Source of the DNA: Xylanibacter ruminicola 23
Lineage (GTDB): Bacteria > Bacteroidota > Bacteroidia > Bacteroidales > Bacteroidaceae
Reading direction: 5' to 3'
DNA: 32,000 nucleotides
Assembly: GCF_000025925.1 (NCBI RefSeq)
Contig: NC_014033.1
Coordinates: 3,570,001 to 3,602,000 of the forward strand
Part shown: positions 2,119 to 16,091 of the stretch, piece by piece
Position numbering within the stretch: position 1 is the first letter of the stretch
Layout: each line of letters starts with the position of its first letter
Made by a program: the position numbers and the translations under genes
The notes under the pieces: generated by a model
Databases searched by the model: none
What the model was told of the DNA's origin: nothing
What the model saw: the letters and a program-made list of their open reading frames with translations, nothing else

Positions 2119-3239
2119 TGATAGAGCTGATAAACCTGGCCGGCGACATCGGTGCCAGCGAAACGCTGCACATAGGTCTGGCTGCGCTGGATGCGGGCCT
2201 CGCGATGGGCTGAACCAATCAGCGAGCGGCGGATGGCATTGGCCATACCTAACACATCGCCTGGCGACACATAGATGTTGTCGGGGCCGCCAGCCTCTTC
2301 GAGACAGGAACCGCTGCAAGCCACTACTGGCAAACCGCAACGGATGGCCTCGATGATAGGTATGCCGAAACCCTCGTAAACACTGGGATAAACAAACACT
2401 TCGGCCATAGCATAAAGGGCGGGCAGGTGCTCGTCGGGGACACCATGCAGGATACGTACACGCTGCTGCAGGTTCTGACGCTGTGCGTAGGCCATCACCT
2501 TATGGGTGTAATCGGTGGGGCGGCCGATGATGACCAGCGACACATCGGAGGGCAGATAGAGCAGCGCCTGAACGGCCTGCAGCACATTCTTGCGCGTTTC
2601 GATAGAACCCACATTCAGGATGTAACGCTGGGGTAACTGGTAATGCTGGGCTACCTGCTGCAGCACGGCGGCATCGGTCTCGGCACCGAAACGCTGGGCA
2701 CAACTCTGGTAGATGAGCGAGATTTTCTCGTCGGGTACCTGACCGTACTGGATGATATCGTGCTTGGTACGCTCGCTGATGGCAATGATATGGGTGGCCT
2801 CGCGCAGGGTGCGACGGAACTTCCAGGTGTAGAGCTTGACATCGATGGGATTGTAAAACTCAGGATGGCGCAGGAATATCAAATCGTGGATGGTAACTAC
2901 GCTGGGGATGCCGCTCTGACTGATGCCAAGGGGCAGTTCGCCCGATAAGCCATGATAGAGCTGGATGCCATCGCGCTTAAGATCGGCTACGATACCCTTG
3001 GTACGCCAGTAGGCGTTGCCCAACGGCCATCGTTTGTTGGCAAACTTAAATGCTACATTGGGGCGCTCTATGATTTGGTTGCGCAGAGGGGCGCGACCGG
3101 CATCTGGGGCATAGAGGCTGAGCTGCAGGGGATACTGGGCCAGATCGTTGACCAACGTGCGGCCATAGGCACCAAGGCCTGTGCCGTTGCGAACAATGCG
3201 CTTGGCATCGAAACCGATATGAAGGGGCGTGTTACTCAT
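2097..3239 (-). CDS. GT-B fold glycosyltransferase (Glycos_transf_1 / CAZy GT4-like)
   Basis: Start MSNTPLHIGFDAKRI at ATG 3239. The C-terminal half carries the GT4 pattern (RKNV, VFVYPSVYEGFGIPIIEA). The ORF-track extension to 3413 overlaps the GtrA-like gene and is rejected. Confidence 0.8.
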   Translation of the reverse strand: MSNTPLHIGFDAKRIVRNGTGLGAYGRTLVNDLAQYPLQLSLYAPDAGRAPLRNQIIERPNVAFKFANKRWPLGNAYWRTKGIVADLKRDGIQLYHGLSGELPLGISQSGIPSVVTIHDLIFLRHPEFYNPIDVKLYTWKFRRTLREATHIIAISERTKHDIIQYGQVPDEKISLIYQSCAQRFGAETDAAVLQQVAQHYQLPQRYILNVGSIETRKNVLQAVQALLYLPSDVSLVIIGRPTDYTHKVMAYAQRQNLQQRVRILHGVPDEHLPALYAMAEVFVYPSVYEGFGIPIIEAIRCGLPVVACSGSCLEEAGGPDNIYVSPGDVLGMANAIRRSLIGSAHREARIQRSQTYVQRFAGTDVAGQVYQLYHQILSRS

Positions 3240-3246
3240 GATAATA

Positions 3247-3636
3247 CTATTGCTTTTTAAAGTGCTTGAATACAAAACGAACCATGATGAAATTGGCGGG
3301 CACAGCGATGGCCAGTACTGCCAATGGGGCCACAGCACGACTGAGACCCAACCACAGGAAGAAATTGAACAGCACGATGTGCAGCACGTAGTTGACTGCA
3401 TGGGCGCCGCCAAAACCTATGCCGTTGCGGGCTGAGGTTTTTTCGCGGAAGGTGAAGTGGGCCGACAGGTAGTAGTTGACTAAGAAACTAACGATATAGC
3501 CCACCGTATAGGCAATGTTAACCTCGATAAAGTGCTGCAGCAACCAGTACACACCGTAGTGGATGGCGGCGGCAGTGGTGCCCACAATACCGAAGCGAAC
3601 AATCTGACCAAATGTTTCCTTTTTATCCATGAACAT
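3247..3636 (-). CDS. GtrA-family small membrane protein (lipid-linked sugar translocation accessory)
   Basis: About 130 aa with four hydrophobic helices. The N-terminus has the typical GtrA pattern (FGIVGTTAAAIHYGVYWLL ... HFTF). ATG at 3636, or alternatively 3630. It sits 7 nt upstream of the GT4 gene. Confidence 0.8.
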   Translation of the reverse strand: MFMDKKETFGQIVRFGIVGTTAAAIHYGVYWLLQHFIEVNIAYTVGYIVSFLVNYYLSAHFTFREKTSARNGIGFGGAHAVNYVLHIVLFNFFLWLGLSRAVAPLAVLAIAVPANFIMVRFVFKHFKKQ

Positions 3637-3648
3637 GAAATTTTGGTG

Positions 3649-3656
3649 CAAAGATA
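3649..3656 (-). promoter_or_regulatory. -7 promoter box (TATCTTTG on minus strand) for the GtrA-like/GT4 operon
   Basis: Exact TAnnTTTG 12 nt upstream of the ATG at 3636. It forms part of the 12-bp inverted repeat. Confidence 0.55.
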
Positions 3657-3678
3657 CAAATAATTCGGTATAATTGTG

Positions 3679-3686
3679 TACCTTTG
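3679..3686 (+). promoter_or_regulatory. -7 promoter box (TACCTTTG) for the CE4/GT2/GT87 operon
   Basis: Exact TAnnTTTG 24 nt upstream of the ATG at 3711. Confidence 0.6.
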
Positions 3687-3710
3687 CACCAAATTATACC
3701 AATTATTATC

Positions 3711-4487
3711 ATGATACTATTGAGTTTTGATACCGAAGAGTTTGATGTGCCCCGCGAACATGGCGTGGATTTTACATTACAACAAGGTATGGAAGTTTCG
3801 AAGGAAGGCACGCGCCGCATATTGGACTGCTTGAAGCAGAACGGCGTGAAGGCTACCTTTTTTTGCACAGGCAATTTTGCAGAGAATGCACCCGAACTGA
3901 TGCAACGGATTATGGACGAAGGGCACGAGGTGGCCTGTCATGGCGTGGATCACTTTGAGCCGAAAGAGACTGACTTTGCCCGATCGAAGGAAATAGTGGA
4001 ACGGGTAACCGGACGAACGGTGTACGGCTACCGACAGCCACGTATGTTCCCCGTGGTGGAGAGCGAAATAAAGCGTGCGGGCTATCGCTATAACTCGAGT
4101 TTGAACCCTGCGTTCATTCCCGGCAGATACATGCATCTGACTGAACCCAGAACCTGGTTTATGAAGGATGGGGTGATGCAGATACCGGCTTCGGTAACAC
4201 CGCTGATACGATTCCCGCTGTTCTGGCTGGCACTGCACAACCTGCCACAGAGCGTGTACCACTGGCTGGTGAGAAGGGTGCTGAAGCACGATGGCTACTT
4301 TGTGACCTACTTTCACCCATGGGAGTTTTACGACCTGAAGGAGCACCCCGAGTTTAAGATGCCCTTTATTATCAAGAACCACAGCGGACGTGAGATGGCT
4401 GGGCGACTTGACAAGCTGATAAAGATGCTGAAAGCCCACGGCCACGAATTTATAACTTACACGGAATTTACTGACAAGCAACTATAA
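3711..4487 (+). CDS. Polysaccharide deacetylase family protein (CE4; ArnD/LgmC-like candidate)
   Basis: Starts MILLSFDTEEFD (CE4 motif 1, TFDD-like). Contains ATFFCTG and HEVACHGVDH (His-His metal motif). No signal peptide. ATG at 3711. Confidence 0.75.
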   Translation: MILLSFDTEEFDVPREHGVDFTLQQGMEVSKEGTRRILDCLKQNGVKATFFCTGNFAENAPELMQRIMDEGHEVACHGVDHFEPKETDFARSKEIVERVTGRTVYGYRQPRMFPVVESEIKRAGYRYNSSLNPAFIPGRYMHLTEPRTWFMKDGVMQIPASVTPLIRFPLFWLALHNLPQSVYHWLVRRVLKHDGYFVTYFHPWEFYDLKEHPEFKMPFIIKNHSGREMAGRLDKLIKMLKAHGHEFITYTEFTDKQL

Positions 4488-4506
4488 GATAACAACAAAC
4501 GAATGT

Positions 4507-5454
4507 ATGAAAACGGTAACAATTATACTGCCTGCCTATAACGAGGAGTCGTCGTTCGAGCTACTGAAAGAACGGATGGGCGAGGTGCTGAAACAGAACC
4601 CGGACTACAACTGGGAGTTTCTGCTGGTAAACGATGGCAGTAGCGACCATACGCTGCAGCAGATGATGCGACTGCACCGCGAAGACCTGCATTACAACTA
4701 TCTGGACCTGAGCCGCAACTACGGCAAGGAGATAGCGATGATGGCTGGTTTTGACTATGCCAAAGGCGATGCCGTAATAGTGATGGACGCCGACATGCAG
4801 CACCCGATAGACGTGATACCCGAGATGCTGCAATACTGGGAGCAGGGTTACGACGACGTGTATGCCACCCGACAGGACAGTAAGGAGAGTTGGCTGAAGC
4901 GTAAGACATCGCACTGGTACTACGAGGTGCTGCAATCGGTTACCAAGGTGCCCATACAGAAGGATACCGGTGACTTCAGACTGCTGGACCGCTCGTGTGT
5001 GGAGGCCTTGAAACAGATGCGCGAAACCGAACGTAACACCAAGGGTATGTACTCGTGGATAGGATTCCGCAAAAAGGGCATCGGCTACAAGCAGCTGGAG
5101 CGACAGACGGGTGAGAGCAAATGGAGCACACGCGCGCTGATGCACCTGGCACTGAACGGTATCATGTCGTACACCACCGCACCGCTGCGACTGGCATCGG
5201 TACTGGGACTGATCGTATCGTTTGCGGCTTTCCTGTATCTGATATACATTATTGTGATTACCAATTTGTATGGCGAGCCGGTTCAGGGTTATCCTACGAT
5301 GATGGTAACGATACTCTTCTTAGGTGGCATACAGCTGCTGAGCTTGGGCATCCTGGGTGAGTATGTGGCAAAGATTTTTAATGAAGTGAAGGGCCGACCG
5401 GGCTACTTCCTGAACTCGTATAATGGCGAACGAAACCATGTGGCAAAAAATTAA
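4507..5454 (+). CDS. Polyprenyl-phosphate glycosyltransferase, GT2 (GtrB/ArnC/DPM1-like)
   Basis: Contains IILPAYNEE, LVNDGSSD and MDADMQHP (DxD). Two C-terminal TM helices carry GILGEYVAKIFNEVKGRPGY, typical of GtrB/ArnC-type enzymes. Confidence 0.85.
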   Translation: MKTVTIILPAYNEESSFELLKERMGEVLKQNPDYNWEFLLVNDGSSDHTLQQMMRLHREDLHYNYLDLSRNYGKEIAMMAGFDYAKGDAVIVMDADMQHPIDVIPEMLQYWEQGYDDVYATRQDSKESWLKRKTSHWYYEVLQSVTKVPIQKDTGDFRLLDRSCVEALKQMRETERNTKGMYSWIGFRKKGIGYKQLERQTGESKWSTRALMHLALNGIMSYTTAPLRLASVLGLIVSFAAFLYLIYIIVITNLYGEPVQGYPTMMVTILFLGGIQLLSLGILGEYVAKIFNEVKGRPGYFLNSYNGERNHVAKN

Positions 5455-6565
5455 GCATATCAAAAACAAAGAACAGATATTATTTTGGTTGGGACTGATT
5501 ATCATGGTGGCAGCAACTGCCATCGAAACGCTGCGTGGCAGGGCCAGCAACTACTATGTGTATAGCGATGCCACCAGCATGTTCTGGCACGGACTGACAC
5601 CTTACACCCAGCAGTTTATTACCGACCATGGGCGCTATTTTCTTTATACACCCGTGTTTACCACCCTGTATGCACCTATCCTGCTGCTGCCCAAATGGTT
5701 AGGGCCGTTTGCATGGAACGGCATGCTGTATGCCCTGATGGTAACGGCCATCAGAACGCTGCCGGGCGAGGTGAACAAATACCGCACTAAGATTTTCGGA
5801 TTCCTGCTGTTGCTGATAGTGCAGGGCACCTTCTGTTTTCAGTATAACCTGGTGGTGTGCGCGCTGTTCCTGTTGGCCTTTACGCTGCTGGAGCGTAACA
5901 AGCCGCTGTGGGCGGTACTGCTGATTATGATTTCGGCTACCACTAAGATTTATGGCGGTATAGAGTTGGCGCTGCTGTTGTGCTATCCCAAAATGTGGCG
6001 TAACCTTGGCGCTGCGGTGCTGATGGGCGTGGGATTGCTGTTGCTGCCAGCCTTGAACCCGATGTTTGAGCACCCGCTTGACCTGTACCGACAGATGGGC
6101 GAGATGCTGACACAGCACGGCGATTCGGGTACCTGGGCAGGACTGCTGTTTGCACCCGTACTGCGCGATGTGCTGCTGCCAAACATGCGAGCCATACAGT
6201 TGGGTGTGCTGGCCGTATTGGCTGCCATCTTCTTCTGGAAGTACCGTTTGTGGAACAATTACAGATTCAGAGTAACGGCCTTAGCAGTGATGATGGGCTA
6301 CGTGATACTGTTTAGCGACAGTCCGGAAACACATACGTACCTGATTGCCTTGGCTGGCTACCAGATGGTGTTCTGGTTGCAACCCAAACGTACCACGATA
6401 GACTGGGTGATATTCTGGCTACTGTTCGTAAACTTCTGCATCTTCCCTGTAGATGCACTCTGTCCTGTAGCAGTATATAAATTCTTCCACAATAACTTCT
6501 GGTTTGATATCTATTGCATGACGCTGGCCTGGGTGCGCATGGTTTGGGCTGTGGTGAAGGCATAA
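5423..6565 (+). CDS. Polytopic membrane glycosyltransferase, GT-C fold (DUF2029/GT87-like), paralogue A
   Basis: At least 10 hydrophobic segments. Shares YFLY-P-F and TKIYG motifs with the neighbouring paralogue. The start is ATG 5423 or 5438, and either overlaps the GT2 3' end. Confidence 0.6.
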   Translation: MANETMWQKIKHIKNKEQILFWLGLIIMVAATAIETLRGRASNYYVYSDATSMFWHGLTPYTQQFITDHGRYFLYTPVFTTLYAPILLLPKWLGPFAWNGMLYALMVTAIRTLPGEVNKYRTKIFGFLLLLIVQGTFCFQYNLVVCALFLLAFTLLERNKPLWAVLLIMISATTKIYGGIELALLLCYPKMWRNLGAAVLMGVGLLLLPALNPMFEHPLDLYRQMGEMLTQHGDSGTWAGLLFAPVLRDVLLPNMRAIQLGVLAVLAAIFFWKYRLWNNYRFRVTALAVMMGYVILFSDSPETHTYLIALAGYQMVFWLQPKRTTIDWVIFWLLFVNFCIFPVDALCPVAVYKFFHNNFWFDIYCMTLAWVRMVWAVVKA

Positions 6566-7716
6566 TCCTTGGTGAGCATCTCGTAAATGAGCTTAAACCA
6601 GATGATAGCTACAGGCAGGGCCTTGAGCGAATAGGGCTTGATGAGCTGGCTCCATACTACCTTTGGAAAGAGGTCGGATGGCGACATCGACGTGATGATA
6701 AAGGCGAAGATGATGAGTGCCAGATCGCAGCGGTTGCGCTGCCAAGGACTGGTGAGATACCAGATGGCTACACCGGGCATGGCGATGATGTAGCTGTACG
6801 ACTCGGAACCGGTGCTGAACAGCACAATCGTCATGAGCGCTGAGGCTACGGCTGCCAGGCGGAACCCCTGATGGCGATACTGATCGAGTCGCAGATAAGG
6901 CAGAGCGAAGAGAATGGCACCAGGCAGGATAAGCCAGATATCGTTGTAACTGGCGATGCCTGATATCTTACGTACCATACCCAATAGTGAGATGTTCTGA
7001 CCGGCGGCAAACTGGTTGAGGTCGTTCTTATGTACCAGCACATCGTACCAGGCACCGTACTGGCCGCACACGTAATCGAACCCGAATACGAACATGGGCA
7101 GTACCGACAGAATGACCATCCAGGCTACAAACCAGCCTAAGAACTGGCGCTTATGGTGCGAGAAGGGGAAGAACGCCAAGCCCGCAATACCGTAGATTTT
7201 GGTGACAGTGCCCAAGGCGATGAGAAACGCCGCCCAGCAATCCTTCTGCTTCTGGGTGAGGTAATAGGTGAACAGGATGCAGGCTAAGATGAGACTGTTG
7301 CTCTCGGAATCGAGTATGCAGGTATAGGCTTCGACGGCCACAAACCACAGGATGAACAGCTGCTGACTGCGGGTGAAGAACGACTGGCGTATGCTCCAAT
7401 AAGGCACAAACGTGATGAGCAGCATCCAGATCAGTCGGCCTAACTGATAGGGCAGCACTGCCATGGGTGCCATGAGCAGCGGGAAGAGCGGTCCGTATAG
7501 AAAATAATTACCATCCTCGGGGTAGATAATATACAGTGGCATTTGTTGCCAGGCATGCCAGAACGAGTGGTAGAAGATGGAATAATCGAGGTCGAACTTA
7601 CCCTTGAGCCAAATGCGCAGCCAAGGGATGATGGCCATGATGAGCCATACGAAAAACACGACACGAAAGTCGGCCAGATAGTGTTTAATCTTAGAGGTTA
7701 ATACAGATAGTTTCAT
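6511..7716 (-). CDS. Polytopic membrane glycosyltransferase, GT-C fold (DUF2029/GT87-like), paralogue B
   Basis: ATG at 7716 (MKLSVLTSKIKHYL). Contains YFLYGPLFPLLMAP and TVTKIYGIAG, matching paralogue A. The TTG at 7743 in the ORF track lies inside the promoter box. Confidence 0.6.
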   Translation of the reverse strand: MKLSVLTSKIKHYLADFRVVFFVWLIMAIIPWLRIWLKGKFDLDYSIFYHSFWHAWQQMPLYIIYPEDGNYFLYGPLFPLLMAPMAVLPYQLGRLIWMLLITFVPYWSIRQSFFTRSQQLFILWFVAVEAYTCILDSESNSLILACILFTYYLTQKQKDCWAAFLIALGTVTKIYGIAGLAFFPFSHHKRQFLGWFVAWMVILSVLPMFVFGFDYVCGQYGAWYDVLVHKNDLNQFAAGQNISLLGMVRKISGIASYNDIWLILPGAILFALPYLRLDQYRHQGFRLAAVASALMTIVLFSTGSESYSYIIAMPGVAIWYLTSPWQRNRCDLALIIFAFIITSMSPSDLFPKVVWSQLIKPYSLKALPVAIIWFKLIYEMLTKDYAFTTAQTMRTQASVMQ

Positions 7717-7740
7717 GATCAAAAGGTAAATAATTCTTTG

Positions 7741-7748
7741 CAAAGGTA
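7741..7748 (-). promoter_or_regulatory. -7 promoter box (TACCTTTG on minus strand) for GT87-like paralogue B
   Basis: Exact TAnnTTTG 24 nt upstream of the ATG at 7716. Confidence 0.6.
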
Positions 7749-7790
7749 TAAAAATTTTAGTAGTTTTGGTATAAAAAGCTAAAAAAATTG

Positions 7791-7798
7791 TAACTTTG
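7791..7798 (+). promoter_or_regulatory. -7 promoter box (TAACTTTG) for the PLP enzyme/LicC-like/GT2 operon
   Basis: Exact TAnnTTTG 19 nt upstream of the ATG at 7818. Confidence 0.6.
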
Positions 7799-7817
7799 CA
7801 CCCAAATAAAATAAATT

Positions 7818-8864
7818 ATGGAGAAGGAAATGAATTTTCTGGATAGAAATGAGTTTAATTTCGAACCCAGTGAGAAGGTGGTAGAAGCTATCCGCAATTT
7901 TGACCCAAAGACATTGTGTTTTTATACCCGCATTTACGATCAAGGCAAGAAAAGCGTTGTATCGGTAAAGTTGAGCGAGATATACGGCGTACCCGAAGAG
8001 CAGGTACTGCTGGCTTATGGTGGTGAGGACATTCTGAAGAATGCCATTCACTACTACCTGATGAAAGGCGACAACAAGAAAATACTGATACCCGAATACT
8101 CATGGTGGTACTACAACAAGGTGGCTGCTGAGTGCTACGGTACCTTTGAGATGTACCCCCTGCACGAACAGGAGGATACCTTTGCCTATGATGTGGATGA
8201 GGTGATAGAATATACCAACCGCATTCATCCCCGTATGCTGCTGTTGGCATCGCCTAACAACCCCACGGGTAACTGCTTGACACCCGAGGAGATCGGACGT
8301 ATCATGGAGAACATCCCCAGCGATACAATGGTGCTGATAGATGAGGCTTATGCCAGCTTTATTACCAGCGATACCGACTATATCGCACCACTGGTAAACA
8401 AATACCGCAACCTGATTATATCGCGTACGCTGAGTAAGTTCTACGGACTGCCCGGACTGCGTTGTGGCTTTGGCTTTATCGGTGCCGGACACGATCATTT
8501 TGTAAGCTATATCAACAAGTACTTGGGTTACAACCGCTTCTCGGAGGCTGTGGCTTTGGCTGCGCTCGATAGCGATGAGCACTACCGTAAGGTGGCCGAC
8601 GATATGGAGTGGGGCCGACAGCTGTACAAGAAAGCACTGGGCGACAAGCCTGGCTTTAAGGTGTATAAGAGTGTGGCCAACTTTATCCTGATAAAATATC
8701 CTGTAGAGATTAAGGAGGCCCTGCAGAAGGCGCTGGCCGACCAGAACTACAAGATTAAGTTTATGAGCGATAAGGGCCTGGAGGAGTGTGTGCGTATTAC
8801 CTTGGGTCGCAAGGAGCAGACACAGGTTGTAGTGGATACCATACTGAGAGTAATTGAACATTGA
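7818..8864 (+). CDS. Class I/II PLP-dependent enzyme of the HisC/CobD family (aminotransferase or phospho-amino-acid decarboxylase)
   Basis: Contains LLASPNNPTGN, LIDEAYASF and SRTLSKFYGLPGLRCGFG (PLP lysine in SK). The layout is typical of the histidinol-phosphate aminotransferase family. An alternative ATG lies at 7830. Confidence 0.8.
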   Translation: MEKEMNFLDRNEFNFEPSEKVVEAIRNFDPKTLCFYTRIYDQGKKSVVSVKLSEIYGVPEEQVLLAYGGEDILKNAIHYYLMKGDNKKILIPEYSWWYYNKVAAECYGTFEMYPLHEQEDTFAYDVDEVIEYTNRIHPRMLLLASPNNPTGNCLTPEEIGRIMENIPSDTMVLIDEAYASFITSDTDYIAPLVNKYRNLIISRTLSKFYGLPGLRCGFGFIGAGHDHFVSYINKYLGYNRFSEAVALAALDSDEHYRKVADDMEWGRQLYKKALGDKPGFKVYKSVANFILIKYPVEIKEALQKALADQNYKIKFMSDKGLEECVRITLGRKEQTQVVVDTILRVIEH

Positions 8865-8883
8865 CCATTGACCATTGAACATT
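8853..8883. repeat. Tandem heptamer array ATTGAAC-ATTGACC-ATTGACC-ATTGAAC-ATT
   Basis: Read directly. It spans the upstream stop codon (8862-8864) and ends 1 nt before the ATG at 8884. It places TGA in all three plus-strand frames (8855, 8862, 8869, 8876). Confidence 0.95.
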
Positions 8884-9612
8884 ATGATAGGTGTGATATT
8901 GGCGGCGGGAATGGCCAAGAGACTGCGCCCGCTTACTGACGAGAAACCCAAATGCCTGCTGGAGGTTGGTGGTAAAACGCTGTTGCAGCGTACGGTTGAC
9001 GCGATGATAAGCGCCGGCGTAAAGGAGTTTGTGGTAGTAACAGGCTATCGCGAAAACATGATTCGTGAATTCCTAACTGTCAATTATCAATTGTCAATTA
9101 TCAATTATATCGACAACGTCGATTTTGAGCATAACAACAACATTTTCTCGTTGTGGCTGGCCATGCAGAAACTGCACGGACAAGAGGTGCTGCTGATGGA
9201 TAGCGACATACTGTGCGATCCAGAGGCTGTGCGCCGTGTGGCCCGTAAAACCAACCCCGCCTTGGCCATGCAGCAGCACGAGCTGGGCGAGGAGGAGATG
9301 AAGATTGTGGTTGACGAGGCCGGACGTATTACTGAGATAAGCAAAACCTGCAGTCCTGCCGACGCCATTGGCGAGAGTGTGGGTATCGAGAAGATGACAC
9401 CCGCCTATACCGAGGCCATCTATCAGGAACTGCGCAAGATGATATTGGATGAGAACCTGATAGATATCTTCTACGAGCGCGCCTTTGAGCGACTGATTCC
9501 ACAAGGACATACGTTTGAAGTGGTAGATACCACCGACCTGTTCAGTTACGAGCTCGACACCCCCGAGGACTTGGAAAAAGCTTCGGCTGCATTACCAAAA
9601 GAATTGTATTAA
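8884..9612 (+). CDS. LicC-like nucleotidyltransferase (phospho-base/phospho-alcohol cytidylyltransferase family)
   Basis: Contains MIGVILAAGMAKRLRPLTDEKPKCLL (nucleotide-binding loop), NNNIFSLWLA (LicC-like) and MDSDIL. ATG at 8884 is preferred over the TTG at 8875. Confidence 0.8.
   Translation: MIGVILAAGMAKRLRPLTDEKPKCLLEVGGKTLLQRTVDAMISAGVKEFVVVTGYRENMIREFLTVNYQLSIINYIDNVDFEHNNNIFSLWLAMQKLHGQEVLLMDSDILCDPEAVRRVARKTNPALAMQQHELGEEEMKIVVDEAGRITEISKTCSPADAIGESVGIEKMTPAYTEAIYQELRKMILDENLIDIFYERAFERLIPQGHTFEVVDTTDLFSYELDTPEDLEKASAALPKELY
9079..9108. repeat. Exact 14-bp tandem duplication GTCAATTATCAATT x2, equivalent to four CAATTRT heptamers, inside the LicC-like CDS
   Basis: Read directly: 9079-9092 equals 9093-9106. 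The heptamer phasing is CAATTAT, CAATTGT, CAATTAT, CAATTAT over 9081-9108. Confidence 0.95.
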
Positions 9613-9613
9613 T

Positions 9614-10495
9614 ATGGATAAACCTCTGTTCTCGATATTGATCCCTACCTGGAACAACCTGAAGTTCCTGAAGATTTGTGTGGATAGCATCCGCAAAAAC
9701 TCGACGTATCCGCACGAGATTCTGATTCATGTGAACGATGGTAGCGACGGCACGCTGGAGTGGGTAAAGGCCGAGGGACTGAAATATACGCACTCGCCCG
9801 AGAACATCGGTGTGTGCTTTGCACTGAACGGTTTGCGCCCATTGGCCACCACCGACTACATACTGTTTATGAACGACGATATGTATGTGTTGCCCGACTG
9901 GGATAAGAACCTGTACGAGGAGATAGAGCGTATCGGACATAAGATGTTCTTCCTGTCATCTACCCTGATTCAGCCACGCCCATTCTTCTGTAAGAGCGTG
10001 ATTGCACCAGCCGACTTTGGACAGACCGTAGAGACCTTTGACGAACAGAGACTGCTGAACGAATATAAGAACCTGCCACACTACGATTGGAAGGGCGCTA
10101 CATGGCCACCAAACGTGGTGCATAAGGATATCTGGGACTTGGTAGGCGGCTACTCGATTGAGTATTCGCCAGGCATGTATAGCGATCCCGACTTCTCGGC
10201 TAAGCTGTGGAAGGCGGGTGTAAGAATCTTCAAAGGCATTGATAAGAGTCGTGTGTACCATTTTGAGGCACGCTCAACCCATCGCATTGTGAAGAACGAT
10301 GGCAGTACGCAGTTTCTGAGAAAATGGGGCATCACATCGGCATCGTTTATGCGCGATGTGCTGCAGCGCGGCGAACGCTGGGACAGCCAGAACGACACCA
10401 GTGCCGCCCTGAAGAAAGACCTGACAAGAAGTAAGCTGAAGAAAGCCCTGACGATATTCCGTGATGTGAAAATCAAGAATATCTGGGAGGATTAA
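9614..10495 (+). CDS. Glycosyltransferase family 2
   Basis: Contains FSILIPTWNN, VNDGSDGT and MNDDMYVLPDW (DxD). It starts 1 nt after the LicC-like stop. Confidence 0.8.
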   Translation: MDKPLFSILIPTWNNLKFLKICVDSIRKNSTYPHEILIHVNDGSDGTLEWVKAEGLKYTHSPENIGVCFALNGLRPLATTDYILFMNDDMYVLPDWDKNLYEEIERIGHKMFFLSSTLIQPRPFFCKSVIAPADFGQTVETFDEQRLLNEYKNLPHYDWKGATWPPNVVHKDIWDLVGGYSIEYSPGMYSDPDFSAKLWKAGVRIFKGIDKSRVYHFEARSTHRIVKNDGSTQFLRKWGITSASFMRDVLQRGERWDSQNDTSAALKKDLTRSKLKKALTIFRDVKIKNIWED

Positions 10496-11325
10496 CCCTT
10501 CATATTGGCACGCTGATCATCGTACTGGCGATAGGGCAGCTGATAGTCGAGATAATGAAAATCGTGCTGTCGCTGTTCGTCGTGCTTTGGGATGGTCATA
10601 TAATCGCCGTATTTGGTAGCCAGGTAGGTATCGAAATGCTCAACGCCCATAAACGTGATATCCTCGAACTTGATGGGTGTGGGTTGACCTAATACAGCCT
10701 TGTTGATGATGCCGTTCTTGCCATCATCGTAATCGGCTATCAAATCGCACTTGTCGTAATCGTAGTGCATCATAATGCGGCGCATCTTCTGCTGCACATA
10801 GTGGTTGGTAAACAGCTTCTGGCACAGCAAAGGCACTACGGCACTGAGATCCTTACCATGTTTGAACGGATCGCGGTGGATGTAGTAGATAACACGCTTC
10901 CAGAACTCGTAGCGCGCAAAGTTAAGGCGCTGCAACAGTTTGTTGGCACAAACACCATCCAAGGGGAACACATCGATATACAAACCACCGATATAGTTGA
11001 TATGCTCGCGTTCAATCAGCGTGGTGCTGGCATCCTGGATTTTACCGAAGGGACCTGGGTAGTTGGGATCGGTCTCGGCACAAACGGCCTCGAATGGCTT
11101 GGGCAGCCACTCGTGGGCATGAGCCATCAGTGTGTCGTAATCCTTACGGGGCATGGCGATATCCATATCATCATCCCAGGGAATAAAGCCCTTGTGGCGC
11201 ACTGCACCCAGCATGGTGCCTGCCCAGAGATAATAGCGCAGGTTGTGTTCCTGACATACTTTATCGACGGCCTGAAGAATCTTCAGGATGTGGAGTTGAA
11301 GGGGACGGATATCGTAACTTGCCAT
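10492..11325 (-). CDS. LicD-family phosphotransferase (CDP-X:glycan phospho-X transferase)
   Basis: Contains YYLWAGTMLGAVRHKGFIPWDDDMDIAMPRKDY (LicD signature with DxD), then YIDVFPLD. It overlaps the converging GT2 by 4 nt. Confidence 0.8.
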   Translation of the reverse strand: MASYDIRPLQLHILKILQAVDKVCQEHNLRYYLWAGTMLGAVRHKGFIPWDDDMDIAMPRKDYDTLMAHAHEWLPKPFEAVCAETDPNYPGPFGKIQDASTTLIEREHINYIGGLYIDVFPLDGVCANKLLQRLNFARYEFWKRVIYYIHRDPFKHGKDLSAVVPLLCQKLFTNHYVQQKMRRIMMHYDYDKCDLIADYDDGKNGIINKAVLGQPTPIKFEDITFMGVEHFDTYLATKYGDYMTIPKHDEQRQHDFHYLDYQLPYRQYDDQRANMKG

Positions 11326-11356
11326 AAAACTATTGTTATTTGTTTATATTTCGTGG

Positions 11357-11364
11357 CAAAGGTA
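11357..11364 (-). promoter_or_regulatory. -7 promoter box (TACCTTTG on minus strand) for the LicD-family gene
   Basis: Exact TAnnTTTG 31 nt upstream of the ATG at 11325. Confidence 0.55.
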
Positions 11365-11418
11365 CGCAAAAAACTGCATATTTCAATAAAAACGCTTGTG
11401 AGATTGCAAATAATTATA

Positions 11419-11426
11419 TAATTTTG
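11419..11426 (+). promoter_or_regulatory. -7 promoter box (TAATTTTG) for the LpxL-like gene
   Basis: Exact TAnnTTTG, but only 5 nt lie before the ATG at 11432. This implies a leaderless or near-leaderless mRNA, or another promoter. Confidence 0.4.
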
Positions 11427-11431
11427 CATCC

Positions 11432-12406
11432 ATGAAGGTTCTCTACTATATTGTTTTAGCCGTTTGGTATGTGTTCTCATTACTGCCATTACGTGTACAT
11501 TACTTCATCAGCGACCTGCTGTTCTGGTTGCTGTATGGCGTATTGGGCTATCGTAAGAAGGTGATAAGAAGAAACATCAAAGAGTCGTTCCCCGAGAAAA
11601 CTGATGACGAGAGATACAGGATAGAACGCGGATTCTACCACTTTTTCTGTGATTACATCGTGGAGAGTGTGAAACTGATGACGATGACACCCGAGAACCT
11701 GAAGCGCCGTATGGTGTTTAAGGGGGTAGAGCAGATTGATGAGGCTATCAATTCGGGGCAGTCGTGCGCCGTGTATCTGGGGCATCTGTGCAACTGGGAG
11801 TGGATAACATCGTTGCCACTCTGGATGAAGTCGGACGCGCAATTAGGACAGATTTATCATCCTATCGAGAATAAGGATTTCGACCGCTTGTTCCTGCGCT
11901 CGCGCCAGCGTATGGGAGCCGTTTGTATCCCCATGCAGGATACGCTGCGAAGAATGGTGGAGTACCGCAGGGCTAAGCAGCCTATCGTTATCGGATTTAT
12001 CTCGGACCAGAAGCCCCATTGGGTGAATATCCACCACTGGATAGATTTCCTGCATCACGATACACCCGTGCTCACTGGTACTGAGCGTATTGCCAAGAAG
12101 ATGAATTATGCGGTGTTCTTCATGGATGTGCGTCGTGTAAAGCGTGGCTACTATGAGGCCGAAGTGATTCCTATGACCCGCGAGCCACAGCAGCTGAAGG
12201 ATTACGAACTCACAGATATGTACTTTGATTTGTTGGAGAAGAGCATCAAGCGTGCGCCTGAGTTCTGGTTGTGGAGTCACGACCGCTGGAAGCGTACACG
12301 TGCTGAGTTTAACGAGCGTTTCGAGGTGATCGACGGTAAGGTGATAGCTAAGGATCATCCCGACAATAAGCCCGCGCCTCCCAAGAAACCTTGGTATAAG
12401 TTCTAA
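11432..12406 (+). CDS. Lipid A late acyltransferase family (LpxL/HtrB-type lysophospholipid acyltransferase)
   Basis: N-terminal TM anchor, then the FPEK motif in RRNIKESFPEKTDDE, and GHLCNWEW (HX4E catalytic motif of the LpxL family). Confidence 0.75.
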   Translation: MKVLYYIVLAVWYVFSLLPLRVHYFISDLLFWLLYGVLGYRKKVIRRNIKESFPEKTDDERYRIERGFYHFFCDYIVESVKLMTMTPENLKRRMVFKGVEQIDEAINSGQSCAVYLGHLCNWEWITSLPLWMKSDAQLGQIYHPIENKDFDRLFLRSRQRMGAVCIPMQDTLRRMVEYRRAKQPIVIGFISDQKPHWVNIHHWIDFLHHDTPVLTGTERIAKKMNYAVFFMDVRRVKRGYYEAEVIPMTREPQQLKDYELTDMYFDLLEKSIKRAPEFWLWSHDRWKRTRAEFNERFEVIDGKVIAKDHPDNKPAPPKKPWYKF

Positions 12407-14283
12407 AGCAACTTGTTTTTGGTCATGCGCATCATATATTGTTGTATGATGGCTTTCAGCTCGCGTTCCATCTGCGCCTGCTGAGGTACCTTGCCCTTCA
12501 GGTTGTGCTGCATCAGACGGTCGGTTAACTGGTAAACACCCTTGGTTTGTTTGCCGTCGAACTGAAGCACATAACCGTATTTAGCGTACTGATAAATGCC
12601 GTTGAGGTAGTTAACCGCCCACGTATCGTTGGTGGGCGTGCTGAGCACGTCGATACCAAAGGCCATATAGGGCTTAGAGTAGCCTAACATGCCTAAGATG
12701 GTGGGCATGATATCTATCTGCTGGGCAATCTTCTCTTCCATTCGGCCTACAGGCTGCGAAGGATCGTAGATGATGATGGGCGAACAGAATCCACCCAGAT
12801 CGCTCTGATATTCAGCGTGGTCGCTCTGGTTGGTATGGTCGCTGGTAAGCACAAAGATGGTGTTATCAAACCAAGGCTGCTTACGGGCGGTGGCAAAGAA
12901 CTTGCCAAGGGCCATATCGGTATAGCGGATGCACTTCTGGATGGGCAGATGCTCCTCGGGGAACTGTGCCTTATACTGCTCGGGGATGGCGAATGGATGG
13001 TGACTGGAAGCTGAGAAGATAGCTGTCATAAACGGCTGCTGCATCTTACTCATCTCCTCAGCATAATACTGGAAGAAAGGCTCGTCCCAGATGGCCCAGG
13101 TACCATCGAAATCGTTAGTGCCACGAGCAGCCTCGTATTCGGTACGACCGTAATAACGCTGGAAGCCCGTCTTCTTGGCAAAGGCCTCGAAGCCCATCGA
13201 ACCATTCTGGGCCCCATGGAAGAAAGCTGTCTGGTATCCCTCGTTACCCAAGATGCCAGCCAGACCGGTATAATCGTTCATCGAGGCTGGGGTGAGGAAG
13301 AACGGCTCAACAAACATAGGGATGCTGGAGAGGATGCTGGGCATGCCGTCGATACTCTTTCGGCCGTTACAGAAACTGTAGCGGAAGGTGGTGCTGTGGG
13401 CAATGAGCGAATCAACACAAGGGGTATAGCCCTTGTACTTTCCGCCTTCCAAATCGTGATTGAGTGCACCGATATACTCGCGACCAAAACTCTCGATAAT
13501 CAAAACAACAACGTTCTTTTTTACCAATGTATCGGTCTGGGCTTTATGCTGTGGGGTGTAGATAGCTTCTAATTCAGTCTCGCTCTGATAATAGTTGGGC
13601 ACAGTGAATACGCTTTTGCCAATGGTGCGGATGAGCGAGAAGGGGGTGTTGAGCACCAAGGCGGCATCGGTAGGATGCTGGGCGTACTGGTTGGCATTTG
13701 ATACGGTGATGGGGCGAACGGCTGTGGTAAAACCACCGCGCATGCCGGCAATACTCAGAGGTGCGATAAGCAGCAAGCTGGCTAAGTTGGCTGCATGCTT
13801 GCGTCGGGGTAGGGCATATAGCTTGTAAAGGGCTATCATCACTACTACAAACAGCAGTACCAGATACCAGTGGTTGATGAACTCGGTGCCAAAAATGCTA
13901 CCTAAGTTGCCCTCGTTCGAGAACTCGCCGAACACCGTTGTAGTGGTGCGGCGCATGGTGTATTGGAAATAAACCGCATCGCCTAAGTTGATGGCTAAAG
14001 CAAGACCGTTGATGATGAGATACAGCCACTTAAGGGCTTTCTGACCTTTCAGCGTAAATGCCCCAACGGCTATCATCAGCACCACATAAAGCGCATTGGT
14101 ATAAACAATGGCTGAGGTGTCGAACAAGAGTCCGCCACAGAATACATCACTGTTATAATGGAGCAGTTGGGCGTTTTCGAAGAAATATGCCAATCGGGCT
14201 ATCTGGTAAACCACATAGACTAACAGGATGTTCCAGATAACGGCCACGATAGGGGCGTAGGGCTTGCTGAGAAGATGTTTCAT
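12403..14283 (-). CDS. LtaS/OpgB-like membrane phosphotransferase (sulfatase / alkaline-phosphatase superfamily), paralogue 1
   Basis: N-terminal polytopic domain followed by a sulfatase-type domain. Contains VVLIIESFGREY (metal Glu), GRKSIDG (candidate nucleophile Ser) and VLTSDHTN. Confidence 0.75.
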   Translation of the reverse strand: MKHLLSKPYAPIVAVIWNILLVYVVYQIARLAYFFENAQLLHYNSDVFCGGLLFDTSAIVYTNALYVVLMIAVGAFTLKGQKALKWLYLIINGLALAINLGDAVYFQYTMRRTTTTVFGEFSNEGNLGSIFGTEFINHWYLVLLFVVVMIALYKLYALPRRKHAANLASLLLIAPLSIAGMRGGFTTAVRPITVSNANQYAQHPTDAALVLNTPFSLIRTIGKSVFTVPNYYQSETELEAIYTPQHKAQTDTLVKKNVVVLIIESFGREYIGALNHDLEGGKYKGYTPCVDSLIAHSTTFRYSFCNGRKSIDGMPSILSSIPMFVEPFFLTPASMNDYTGLAGILGNEGYQTAFFHGAQNGSMGFEAFAKKTGFQRYYGRTEYEAARGTNDFDGTWAIWDEPFFQYYAEEMSKMQQPFMTAIFSASSHHPFAIPEQYKAQFPEEHLPIQKCIRYTDMALGKFFATARKQPWFDNTIFVLTSDHTNQSDHAEYQSDLGGFCSPIIIYDPSQPVGRMEEKIAQQIDIMPTILGMLGYSKPYMAFGIDVLSTPTNDTWAVNYLNGIYQYAKYGYVLQFDGKQTKGVYQLTDRLMQHNLKGKVPQQAQMERELKAIIQQYMMRMTKNKLL

Positions 14284-16091
14284 CGTTGATTTAAATCTTT
14301 TGTAGCGGCTTGCAGAATGGCTTGGGCAATAGTGATATCGCCCTTACCTGTGGTAACACGCTGACTGTACAGGTCGAATACCGTCAATCCCGTACTATCT
14401 ACCATCGAATATCCTTCGGTAAAGGTATGCATGGCCACGGGGTGGGTATAGGTGCTGCTGAGCACATCGCGACTAAACGTGTAATCGCTATGCGACAGAC
14501 CTAACTGGGCTAACAGCGTAGCGGGCAGGTCGGTCTGATTGCAGATGGTATCGATACGGCGAGGCGCTTTTACGGCGCCGCCAACCCAAATCATCGGGAT
14601 GCGATTGCGTAGCGGATGCTGTTCGTCGTACGCTTTGTAGTTGATGCCGTGATCGGGCAGCAGCACAATCAGCGTATTCTTCCAGGCCTCTGTGCGGCGC
14701 AGTTTGGTTACGAAATCGCCAATACACTGGTCGAGATAATAGAAAGCATTCAGAATCTCGTCGTCGAAATGCTTGATGGGCACATCCCAAGGCTCATGAC
14801 TGCTCAGCGAAGAGTAGCCAATGAGATAAGGCGATGGGAGGGTGGTGGCCATATCATACAGGGTGCCGAAGGTGATGTCATCGCGTACACCCCATTCGGC
14901 TGATTTCTGTTCGGCTGTTGTATAGTCGGCCTTCCAGGTAAGCTGGTCGAACCCGCCGCTAATCAGATAGCTGCGCATGTTGGTAAAATTGATGTCGCCA
15001 CCATACAGATAGTGGGTGTTGTACTGCTTCTCGTCGCGTAGCGAACGGGCGATACAAGGCAGGGTGCGCGATTTGGCGGGCAACTTCATTACCGACGTGT
15101 TGGGGAACGAGGGGTAGCCGCTATAGGTACACAGGGTGCCGCGATCGGTGCGCCATGAGTTGGCATAGCAGTTGGTAAAGTAAACACCTTCGGTAGCCAA
15201 CTTGTTGAGGTTGGGGGTGATATCCTGGCGACCGCTGAGTTCGGTAAACTCACCGCCGAGACTCTCCATCAGTATCACAATGATGTTAGGGGTTGGGGTG
15301 TTCAACAGGGTATCGCTATCTACACTCTCGGTGTTATACAGCTTGTTGATAATCTGTTGGCAGTCCTCGTCGCTCATGTAGTTGTAGCTCTCTACCTCGC
15401 CCGTTTTCTCTAGCGAAGCCAGGAAACTGAAAACGGGATTAACAGCCGAGTGGTTGAGGAACTGATTCTGTGAATAGTACACCTGACCGATATTGGTGGT
15501 TGATTCGTCTAAGCCACCACGAATACCGATAACTATCAATGGTGCCATGACCAGGAAAGTAACCAGGCTGATGACTGCTGTTTTGAGTGAACTCTTCAGT
15601 GGGCTGGTGCCTTTCAGACTGCATAAGGCGTTAGCATAACCCTTATAGATAATTACAGCCGTAACTACTAATGCTACGAATCGCCAGATGAGATAGACGA
15701 TAGAGACGCTGGCTGTAGCCTCGTTGGGTGTTTCGAGATACTGCAGGCACGAGGCATCGAGCTTGAATGCCCAGAAGGGATAAAGACTGGTGTCGGCCAC
15801 AAAAGCCAAAGCAAAGGCGATGGCTATCAGGGCGTAATACCCTTTCAGAATGCGGAACAGCCATTGGCCTGTGTACCACATGCTGACGATGGTGGCGAGA
15901 AAAGGTACAATAAAGAAATAAAGGGCTGTTGATAAGTCGAGCGACAGTCCGTGCTGTACCACCTGCCACATATCGATAAACACGAACTCGTGTCCCTCTC
16001 GGCAGAAAAGCATAAATGCCAACTTGGCCAAGACGAACACAAGAACCGTCCAGAGGTACGTCTTTATCAGATAACTAACTCTGCATTTCAT
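14280..16091 (-). CDS. LtaS/OpgB-like membrane phosphotransferase (sulfatase / alkaline-phosphatase superfamily), paralogue 2
   Basis: Same architecture as paralogue 1. Contains IVILMESLGGEF, SWRTDRG (candidate nucleophile Thr) and VLLPDHGINY. It shares a 4-nt ATGA overlap with paralogue 1. Confidence 0.75.
   Translation of the reverse strand: MKCRVSYLIKTYLWTVLVFVLAKLAFMLFCREGHEFVFIDMWQVVQHGLSLDLSTALYFFIVPFLATIVSMWYTGQWLFRILKGYYALIAIAFALAFVADTSLYPFWAFKLDASCLQYLETPNEATASVSIVYLIWRFVALVVTAVIIYKGYANALCSLKGTSPLKSSLKTAVISLVTFLVMAPLIVIGIRGGLDESTTNIGQVYYSQNQFLNHSAVNPVFSFLASLEKTGEVESYNYMSDEDCQQIINKLYNTESVDSDTLLNTPTPNIIVILMESLGGEFTELSGRQDITPNLNKLATEGVYFTNCYANSWRTDRGTLCTYSGYPSFPNTSVMKLPAKSRTLPCIARSLRDEKQYNTHYLYGGDINFTNMRSYLISGGFDQLTWKADYTTAEQKSAEWGVRDDITFGTLYDMATTLPSPYLIGYSSLSSHEPWDVPIKHFDDEILNAFYYLDQCIGDFVTKLRRTEAWKNTLIVLLPDHGINYKAYDEQHPLRNRIPMIWVGGAVKAPRRIDTICNQTDLPATLLAQLGLSHSDYTFSRDVLSSTYTHPVAMHTFTEGYSMVDSTGLTVFDLYSQRVTTGKGDITIAQAILQAATKDLNQR

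Follow-up and report, generated by a model that had tools for sequence, protein, structure and literature searches.

The subject of this analysis is a pair of neighbouring genes in a 32,000-nucleotide stretch of the genome of Xylanibacter ruminicola 23 (contig NC_014033.1, positions 3,570,001 to 3,602,000 of the forward strand; this whole stretch is hereafter called the window). The first gene encodes a pyridoxal phosphate (PLP)-dependent enzyme of the HisC/CobD family (hereafter the PLP enzyme) and the second a LicC/PntC-like nucleotidyltransferase (NTase); they are followed by a glycosyltransferase of family GT2, and a LicD-family phosphotransferase faces them from the opposite strand (Table 1). 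Judged from sequence, the PLP and NTase genes probably form a portable cassette that supplies an amino alcohol activated by cytidine diphosphate (CDP-X, where X is the amino alcohol), and in this organism LicD would put phospho-X on lipopolysaccharide (LPS). The association of a HisC-like PLP enzyme with a LicC-like NTase and a CDP-alcohol-dependent transferase holds across three phyla.

In the window, the arrangement is consistent with a single transcription unit of the PLP, NTase and GT2 genes, converging on a separately transcribed LicD gene. Copies of the promoter motif TAnnTTTG, of which the window contains 33 against 16.6 ± 4.2 expected, stand 5′ of the PLP gene and 5′ of LicD, which argues for the first three genes as one unit and for LicD as another that is read toward it; the LicD and GT2 genes are convergent, with 3′ ends overlapping by 4 bp. 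Scans for Rfam families, tRNAs, sigma-70 promoters and terminators gave nothing relevant. The initial annotation, which was made from the letters of the window, had described this operon and its convergence on LicD, and the coordinates, family matches and promoter motifs all agree with it. It had also stated that the 32 kb lack a licA-type kinase and a licB-type permease. This is borne out by a Pfam scan of the 25 plausible genes of at least 150 amino acids (aa) in the window, which was negative for choline/APH-type kinases (PF01633, PF01636) and for EamA/LicB-type permeases; among permeases of a generic kind there is just one, a Mem_trans gene of the AEC family some 17 kb from the module.

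The gene pair and its changing partner

A genome scan gave close relatives of the PLP protein in 200 species genomes, and the best 80 loci, all from rumen Prevotellaceae, were analysed, with open reading frames (ORFs) called and clustered in every one of them. The NTase gene lies no more than 3.5 kb from the PLP gene in 76 of the 80 loci and is directly adjacent to it in 65, and the flanks are rearranged. Strain Ga6B6 (L005) has a 99% identical PLP protein and the same gene order as the window. What changes is the transferase that accompanies the pair. LicD is found within 8 kb in 33/80 loci, often co-directional and right after the NTase gene, for example in the order PLP-NTase-LicD-GT4 beside a GT9, a second LicD and a kinase of the Kdo/WaaP family (Kdo, 3-deoxy-D-manno-octulosonate). 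In 35/80 there is a block of a CDP-alcohol phosphatidyltransferase (PF01066, CDP-OH_P_transf) and an MprF-like LPG_synthase_TM protein (PF03706), which may take any order relative to the PLP-NTase pair, and in five loci a TagF-like glycerophosphotransferase (PF04464) stands directly upstream. LicD and the phosphatidyltransferase occur together in a single locus out of the 80. The substrates of all three partner types are CDP-alcohols rather than NDP-sugars. Across the partner classes the PLP and NTase genes are orthologous, with a PLP identity of 85% between classes versus 88–89% within a class.

The logic of the initial annotation, that is, a PLP enzyme feeding a LicC-like enzyme and then LicD with no kinase or permease, thus gains from comparative genomics in its core: the pairing in 76/80 loci, the gene fusions described below and partners that all use CDP-alcohols point the same way. 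The part given to the GT2 gained no such support. The GT2 of the window accompanies the pair in 4/80 loci (L005, L017, L018 and L040), which is so rare that it has to be placed outside the conserved module; the expected conservation of the four-gene set across genomes was not found, LicD itself being near the pair in 33/80, and the suggestion that the GT2 adds the acceptor sugar is left unsupported. In Segatella copri DSM 18205 a LicD gene is present, and the PLP-NTase pair could not be confirmed there.

About 35 of the loci numbered L041 to L084 (e.g., L074 and L081) contain a self-contained block of phosphatidyltransferase, LPG_synthase_TM-like protein, PLP enzyme and NTase in variable order, and no further conserved gene was found in the flanks of this four-gene lipid block. 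Its gene content suggests that an amino-phospholipid, so far uncharacterised, would be made by many rumen Prevotella.

A search of 1.84 billion representative proteins placed the PLP enzyme in a broad subfamily of HisC-like proteins, called here SWWYY after one of its motifs, and eight members were looked up in other Bacteroidota. The order PLP, CDP-OH_P_transf, NTase is seen in five of these loci (L085, L086, L088, L089 and L091), in four of them followed by a LysE gene; in L087 the PLP gene is followed only by the phosphatidyltransferase gene, and the sequence of L090 stops 88 bp after the PLP gene. In L085, L086 and L088 the PLP block is directly downstream of genes for serine palmitoyltransferase, a GNAT-like protein and an SDR. 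The serine palmitoyltransferase of L085 reaches 699.6 bits with model NF047600, above the cut-off of 640, and those of L086 and L088 are matches at the Pfam level only. Since the block lies behind serine palmitoyltransferase, the usual role of the SWWYY family appears to be the synthesis of (sphingo)phospholipid head groups, as far as gene neighbourhood can tell; such a main role in lipids, here sphingolipids, had not been foreseen in the initial annotation.

In L085 (positions 3234-11525), and also in L086 and L088, the genes for serine palmitoyltransferase, GNAT-like protein, SDR, PLP enzyme, CDP-OH_P_transf, NTase and LysE form one co-directional cluster, with one extra unannotated gene after the palmitoyltransferase in L085 and L086. 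This type of cluster is a candidate for a complete sphingophospholipid operon, head group included.

In other phyla the two enzymes are joined in one chain: a fusion family of winged helix-turn-helix, NTase and PLP domains comprises at least 1050 proteins. The fusion gene of Treponema succinifaciens (L092, 7001-8971) adjoins a TagF-like gene and a YidC-sulfatase fusion, with CotH genes on the flanks, and that of a Lachnospiraceae member (L093, 7001-8908) adjoins LicD in a glycopolymer cluster, with a methyltransferase gene after it.

The PLP enzyme and its possible product

The PLP enzyme looks competent, yet it appears from its sequence to be neither HisC nor CobD. Its PLP-binding set (N148, D175, Y178, S206-K207 and R215) and the C-terminal R326, the phosphate/carboxylate residue, are invariant in 40 family members. 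It scores 209.7 bits with the hisC model TIGR01141 (cut-off 276.55) and 114.4 bits with the CobD model TIGR01140 (cut-off 290.55), thus missing both cut-offs; its relative in L085 also stays under the former, with 244.3 bits. In HisC, an N-terminal arm precedes the NENP motif and contributes Tyr20 (E. coli numbering). This arm of about 25 residues is lacking in the PLP enzyme, whose profile alignment begins at position 25 and whose NE motif is at residues 11-12, and the N-terminus is very short in the whole SWWYY subfamily, with the NE motif at residues 2-15. The invariants of the subfamily are D9 R10 N11 E12, Y36, S95 W96 W97 Y98 Y99, SPNNPTGN, DEAY178, S206 K207, R215, YLGxNR240, K314 and R326; among them, SWWYY and YLGxNR stand where HisC motifs would be.

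It is very unlikely that the PLP gene simply encodes the histidinol-phosphate (or aromatic) aminotransferase of the organism, with the NTase adjacent by coincidence and the NTase and LicD using scavenged phosphocholine, 2-aminoethylphosphonate (AEP) or glycerol phosphate. Although hisC is the best family match of the protein, although databases label it 'histidinol-phosphate aminotransferase (family protein)' and although its conservation is very high, the score under the cut-off, the missing arm and the replacement of the HisC motifs by SWWYY and YLGxNR do not suit a housekeeping HisC. The same is told by the genomic context: no his genes lie beside the PLP gene in about 95 loci, a cob context was never seen, and the link to the NTase in most of the Prevotellaceae loci, together with the fusions, makes the PLP-NTase association one of three phyla.

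In the cluster formed around the PLP protein at 90% identity, the named members are all metagenome-assembled genomes called 'Prevotella sp.' or 'Bacteroidaceae'. One entry of this cluster (P0455, 244 aa) is named 'choline kinase' by JGI, which is probably an annotation carried over from a neighbour of LicC/LicA type, or else a mis-called ORF.

As for the reaction, the sequence evidence leans to a transaminase, which would make serinol phosphate from dihydroxyacetone phosphate (DHAP). First of all, the N-terminal motif is HisC-like, NE[N], the query beginning with MEKEMNFLDRNEFN; the N-termini of the CobD structure 1lc5 and of the CobD-like structure 3ftb carry HGGN or HGGD plus NINPLG, and no HGG motif was found in 601 collected sequences. 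Second, the residue that hydrogen-bonds the O3′ of PLP is Tyr (DEAY) in the HisC structures, in the query and in at least 99% of the SWWYY family and of the fusion family, and is Phe in CobD (1lc5, DEAF), in 3ftb (DEAF) and in SMUL_1544 (6oux, DESF), a Tyr/Phe marker based on three decarboxylase-type sequences only. Third, the family profile gives 175 to 129 bits with solved HisC structures, 128 with SMUL_1544, and 87 and 68 with CobD, which is suggestive only. For the product, serinol phosphate is put forward tentatively as the foremost candidate, at somewhat less than an even chance. There is a precedent for both reactions in the COG0079 family, in which Cj1437 converts DHAP into (S)-serinol phosphate and Cj1436 converts L-serine phosphate into ethanolamine phosphate (PMC11800397).

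The chemical precedent in Bacteroidota favours ethanolamine phosphate, by analogy, and this product is a serious possibility, its chance being only a little lower again. In that case, the PLP enzyme would be an O-phospho-L-serine decarboxylase like Cj1436 or SMUL_1544, the NTase would make CDP-ethanolamine, LicD would place phosphoethanolamine (PEtN) on the LPS core, and the phosphatidyltransferase of the relatives would give ceramide phosphoethanolamine or, in a Kennedy-type route, phosphatidylethanolamine (PE); this whole alternative is a quite credible one, held at somewhat less than even chances. PEtN is the amino-alcohol phosphate actually present on Bacteroidales LPS, as Kdo-4-PEtN in that of S. 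copri (PMC12643348) and in that of Bacteroides stercoris; ceramide phosphoethanolamine is a dominant sphingolipid of Bacteroidota (PMC9324278), and the wider PLP family sits behind serine palmitoyltransferase. The score of SMUL_1544 with the family profile, which is in the range of HisC, the methyltransferase gene after the fusion gene in L093 and the extra invariant basic residues R10, K45 and R240, which could hold a carboxylate, can be read in the same direction. It is opposed by the features set out above: the Tyr of DEAY is kept as in transaminases, the N-terminal motif is of the HisC type, not the HGGN/NINP of CobD, and the hisC model scores about twice as high as the CobD model. Moreover, routes to PEtN through PE and Ept-type enzymes already exist in these bacteria, and the cassette would be redundant. 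A third group of products (aminopropanol phosphate, AEP or histidinol phosphate) is improbable.

Returning to serinol, no report of phosphoserinol in these phyla was found in the literature searched. It is a possible, rather doubtful proposal that the cassette makes CDP-serinol, and that phosphoserinol is an unrecognised head group, placed on LPS or glycans by LicD or TagF-like enzymes and on ceramide or diacylglycerol by a phosphatidyltransferase dedicated to it, across Bacteroidota, gut Treponema and Lachnospiraceae. If so, it might explain some of the 'unidentified aminophospholipids' of Bacteroidota.

A neighbouring case in the databases is PDB entry 3fkd from Porphyromonas gingivalis, deposited as L-threonine-O-3-phosphate decarboxylase, which has SFSHAYG instead of the S(L/F)(T/S)K of CobD and HisC. 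It has no PLP lysine for this reason, and its activity may be other than the deposited name says.

The proposed pathway and its relation to known systems

The closest solved relatives of the NTase are LicC (1jyk, 3.7e-12, with only residues 6-114 aligned) and the PntC domain of the PntC-AEPT protein Tde1415 (6pd1, 1.1e-11). Both LicC and PntC are cytidylyltransferases of small aminoalkyl phosphates or phosphonates, and Glu104 of PntC contacts the amine of AEP (PMC6697681). Asp109 of the NTase is aligned with this Glu104, a match that fits an amine-bearing substrate. On these comparisons the NTase looks like a cytidylyltransferase of small phosphoesters. For LicD, the family match is complete (profile positions 1-227 of 227 in PF04991, far above the cut-off of 22.6 bits), and its translation contains IPWDDDMDIAMP, which we take to be the acidic DxD-type motif of the nucleotidyltransferase fold in LicD.

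Gene content, family membership, synteny, fusions and promoter motifs were observed directly, and every enzymatic step of the following pathway is inferred from them. In the first step, a phosphorylated compound of central metabolism would be turned into a phospho-amino-alcohol by the HisC-like PLP enzyme. There is a slight preference here for a transamination in which DHAP and glutamate give serinol phosphate, and a nearly equal chance is given to the decarboxylation that yields ethanolamine phosphate from O-phospho-L-serine; since the phospho-amino-alcohol would be made from a central metabolite, a kinase and an importer would be unneeded. In the second step, as suggested by the homology to LicC and PntC, the NTase would join the phospho-amino-alcohol and CTP into CDP-X. 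In the third step, CDP-X would serve LicD as the donor of phospho-X, the acceptor being a sugar in the LPS core or in a related lipid-linked glycan; this would take place at the cytoplasmic face, ahead of export through the neighbouring MsbA-like transporter, and the product would be a zwitterionic phosphodiester substituent. The LPS core as acceptor and the cytoplasmic face are suggested by the LpxL, MsbA-like, GT9 and Kdo/WaaP-kinase genes found near the module. In other species, CDP-X would go to the phosphatidyltransferase, giving the head group of an amino-phospholipid or sphingophospholipid, or to a TagF-like polymerase/transferase.

Two other assignments of the NTase have to be weighed at this point. 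In the first, the PLP enzyme would form AEP by transaminating phosphonoacetaldehyde; the NTase, as a PntC, would convert it into CMP-AEP, from which LicD would transfer the AEP. The PntC-AEPT fusion 6pd1 is indeed the second-best solved relative of the NTase, and the logic of aminotransferase, LicC-like enzyme and LicD is established for phosphonates (PMC6697681); the known AEP transaminases, however, belong to class V and are not of the HisC type (PMC6697681). Tailoring by phosphonate is a most unlikely explanation here. The AEP route was rejected, because no ORF in 84 loci carries the PEP-mutase signature (K[RK]CGH; PEP, phosphoenolpyruvate) and no PEP_mutase or Ppd Pfam match occurs in L085-L093.

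In the second assignment, the NTase would activate a sugar-1-phosphate or a myo-inositol phosphate, as in the 'alternative' inositol-lipid cluster of Prevotella, and the PLP enzyme would act elsewhere. This has an equally small chance. It can appeal to the top NCBIfam models of the NTase (archaeal GlmU-type, AglF and inositol-1-phosphate cytidylyltransferase) and to the Prevotella cluster of Heaver et al., composed of an NTase, a CDP-alcohol phosphatidyltransferase and an LPG-synthase-like protein (PMC9246714). Against it, those scores lie 3-8 fold under their cut-offs, the LicD, TagF-like and PF01066 enzymes take CDP-alcohols rather than NDP-sugars, and the fusion of NTase and PLP enzyme argues for substrate channelling between them. 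The inositol-phosphate route was rejected as well, because no MIPS motif occurs in any of 84 loci and the PLP gene sits at the position that MIPS has in the PMC9246714 cluster; the cluster with the PLP cassette is parallel to that inositol cluster, yet distinct from it.

Several points weigh against the proposed CDP-amino-alcohol cassette and its use by LicD on LPS. All functional steps are deduced from protein families and neighbouring genes, and LPS as the acceptor is taken from the genomic context. The NTase has no NCBIfam equivalog match, the best models being those of sugar-1-phosphate and inositol-phosphate nucleotidyltransferases, all under their cut-offs as stated. None of the three transferase types is within reach in 9/80 loci. 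The PLP protein is strikingly conserved relative to its neighbours across the 80 loci (identity 84–99%, median 87%, against medians of 68% for the NTase and 62% for LicD), which would also fit a housekeeping enzyme. Finally, the comparison of profiles and structures which the initial annotation had proposed for telling decarboxylase from transaminase gave a divided answer: the sequence markers lean to the transaminase, but the fold places HisC and CobD equally close. In Foldseek, the AlphaFold model of the PLP enzyme (pLDDT 89.1) has TM-scores of 0.79–0.84 with HisC, 0.82 with CobD of Salmonella enterica and 0.73 with SMUL_1544, values that do not separate the two reactions.

The proposed cassette works like the Lic-1, Pnt and, in the relatives, Kennedy schemes, and has the defining features of none of them. 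Lic-1 (LicA-LicD of Streptococcus pneumoniae and Haemophilus influenzae) likewise has a LicC-type enzyme that makes a CDP-alcohol and a LicD-family transfer to a surface glycan, whereas the cassette comes without the LicB importer and the LicA kinase, de novo synthesis by the PLP enzyme would provide the phospho-alcohol, and a primary amino alcohol presumably takes the place of the choline of Lic-1 as the substrate. With the Pnt pathway (Ppm, Ppd, AEPT and PntC; Rice et al. 2019, PMC6697681) it shares a PLP aminotransferase paired, and sometimes fused (Tde1415), with a LicC-like cytidylyltransferase, the pair feeding LicD-like or lipid transferases. It differs in that its PLP enzyme is of the HisC type (class I/II), not class V, and in that PEP mutase and decarboxylase are absent, so its product would be a phosphate ester and not a phosphonate. 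The capsule enzymes Cj1437 and Cj1436 of Campylobacter jejuni HS:2, compared by description, also belong to the HisC/CobD family of PLP enzymes and draw on central metabolites to provide a surface glycan with small phospho-amino-alcohols; their products, in contrast, are coupled as amides to glucuronate through an ATP-grasp ligase and lose their phosphate afterwards, with no CDP activation or phosphodiester transfer.

Kennedy-type systems (eukaryotic CDP-ethanolamine and the putative CDP-inositol cluster of Prevotella; Heaver et al. 2022) resemble the relatives of the window, in which the block of NTase, phosphatidyltransferase and LPG-synthase-TM-like protein stands by an enzyme for the head-group phosphate; here, however, the source of that phosphate would be a HisC-like PLP enzyme rather than a kinase or MIPS, and the window has LicD in the place of the phosphatidyltransferase. 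HisC and CobD themselves share with the PLP enzyme the fold (TM-score 0.8), the PLP-binding residues and the C-terminal Arg, and are set apart from it by both cut-offs, by the arm and the HGGN motif that it lacks, by its own SWWYY and YLGxNR motifs and by the absence of his or cob context.

In the literature searched, in which subscription journals mostly fell outside the coverage, no description was found of a cassette of HisC-like and LicC-like enzymes, of CDP-serinol or of a bacterial ceramide phosphoethanolamine synthase. If the proposed pathway is true, it would be a route from central metabolism to a CDP-activated amino alcohol independent of kinase, importer and PE, whose product could go to LPS, wall polymers or (sphingo)lipids according to the attached transferase. 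It could then explain zwitterionic surface charge, and possibly the origin of phospho-amino-alcohol head groups of sphingolipids, in abundant gut and rumen bacteria. The cassette is widespread, being found in rumen Prevotellaceae, with related forms behind serine palmitoyltransferase in other Bacteroidota and fused forms in gut Treponema and Lachnospiraceae.

The surrounding LPS island

By its gene families, the neighbourhood in the window is an island of LPS assembly and modification. Upstream of the module there are a GT4, a polysaccharide deacetylase, an ArnC/PgfS-like GT2 and two GT87-like polytopic membrane proteins, and downstream an LpxL-type acyltransferase, two membrane phosphotransferases of the LtaS/sulfatase type and the MsbA-like exporter. 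A Kdo/WaaP-type kinase, which the window does not have, recurs in 19/80 of the related loci.

Table 1. Features of the module and its LPS context (positions within the window)
Feature	Position	Strand	Remarks
Bacteroidetes-type −7 promoter motif TAACTTTG	7791-7798	+	20 nt 5′ of the PLP ATG; inside the 74-bp intergenic gap
HisC/CobD-family PLP enzyme	7818-8864	+	348 aa; PF00155, 137 bits; motif SRTLSKFYG, PLP lysine K207
LicC/PntC-like nucleotidyltransferase (NTase)	8875-9612	+	245 aa; NTP_transferase; real start perhaps an ATG a few codons downstream
GT2 glycosyltransferase, final gene of the + strand unit	9614-10495	+	293 aa; PF00535, 74 bits
LicD-family phosphotransferase, WDDDMD motif	10492-11325	-	277 aa; PF04991, 150.4 bits
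TAnnTTTG promoter motif 5′ of LicD	11357-11364	-	
LpxL-type lipid A secondary acyltransferase	11432-12406	+	context; near the module in 25 loci
MsbA-like ABC exporter	16075-17901	-	context; recurs in 19 loci

In loci L001-L003 (about 15.5-20.6 kb), from a relative of 91% identity, the neighbours of the module are a GT9, another LicD and two kinases, one of the Kdo/WaaP family and one of the CotH family.

Four clustered genes precede the module in the window at 3684-7743, namely the polysaccharide deacetylase (3684-4487), the ArnC/PgfS-like GT2 (4507-5454; 180 bits with the ArnC model and 292 bits with the PgfS model) and the GT87-like proteins (5423-6565 and 6511-7743); in relatives there is also a GtrA-like gene. 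On these family matches, the set looks like an Arn/Lgm-type system, in which a deacetylated amino sugar would be passed from a polyprenyl-phosphate carrier to LPS on the periplasmic face. On the other side of the module, at 12403-16091, two membrane proteins of the LtaS/sulfatase family (626 and 603 aa) are encoded in tandem, flanked by the LpxL-like gene and that of the MsbA-like exporter. Judging from their family, they probably transfer phosphoglycerol or PEtN in the periplasm, and such tandem genes accompany the module in many Prevotellaceae loci.

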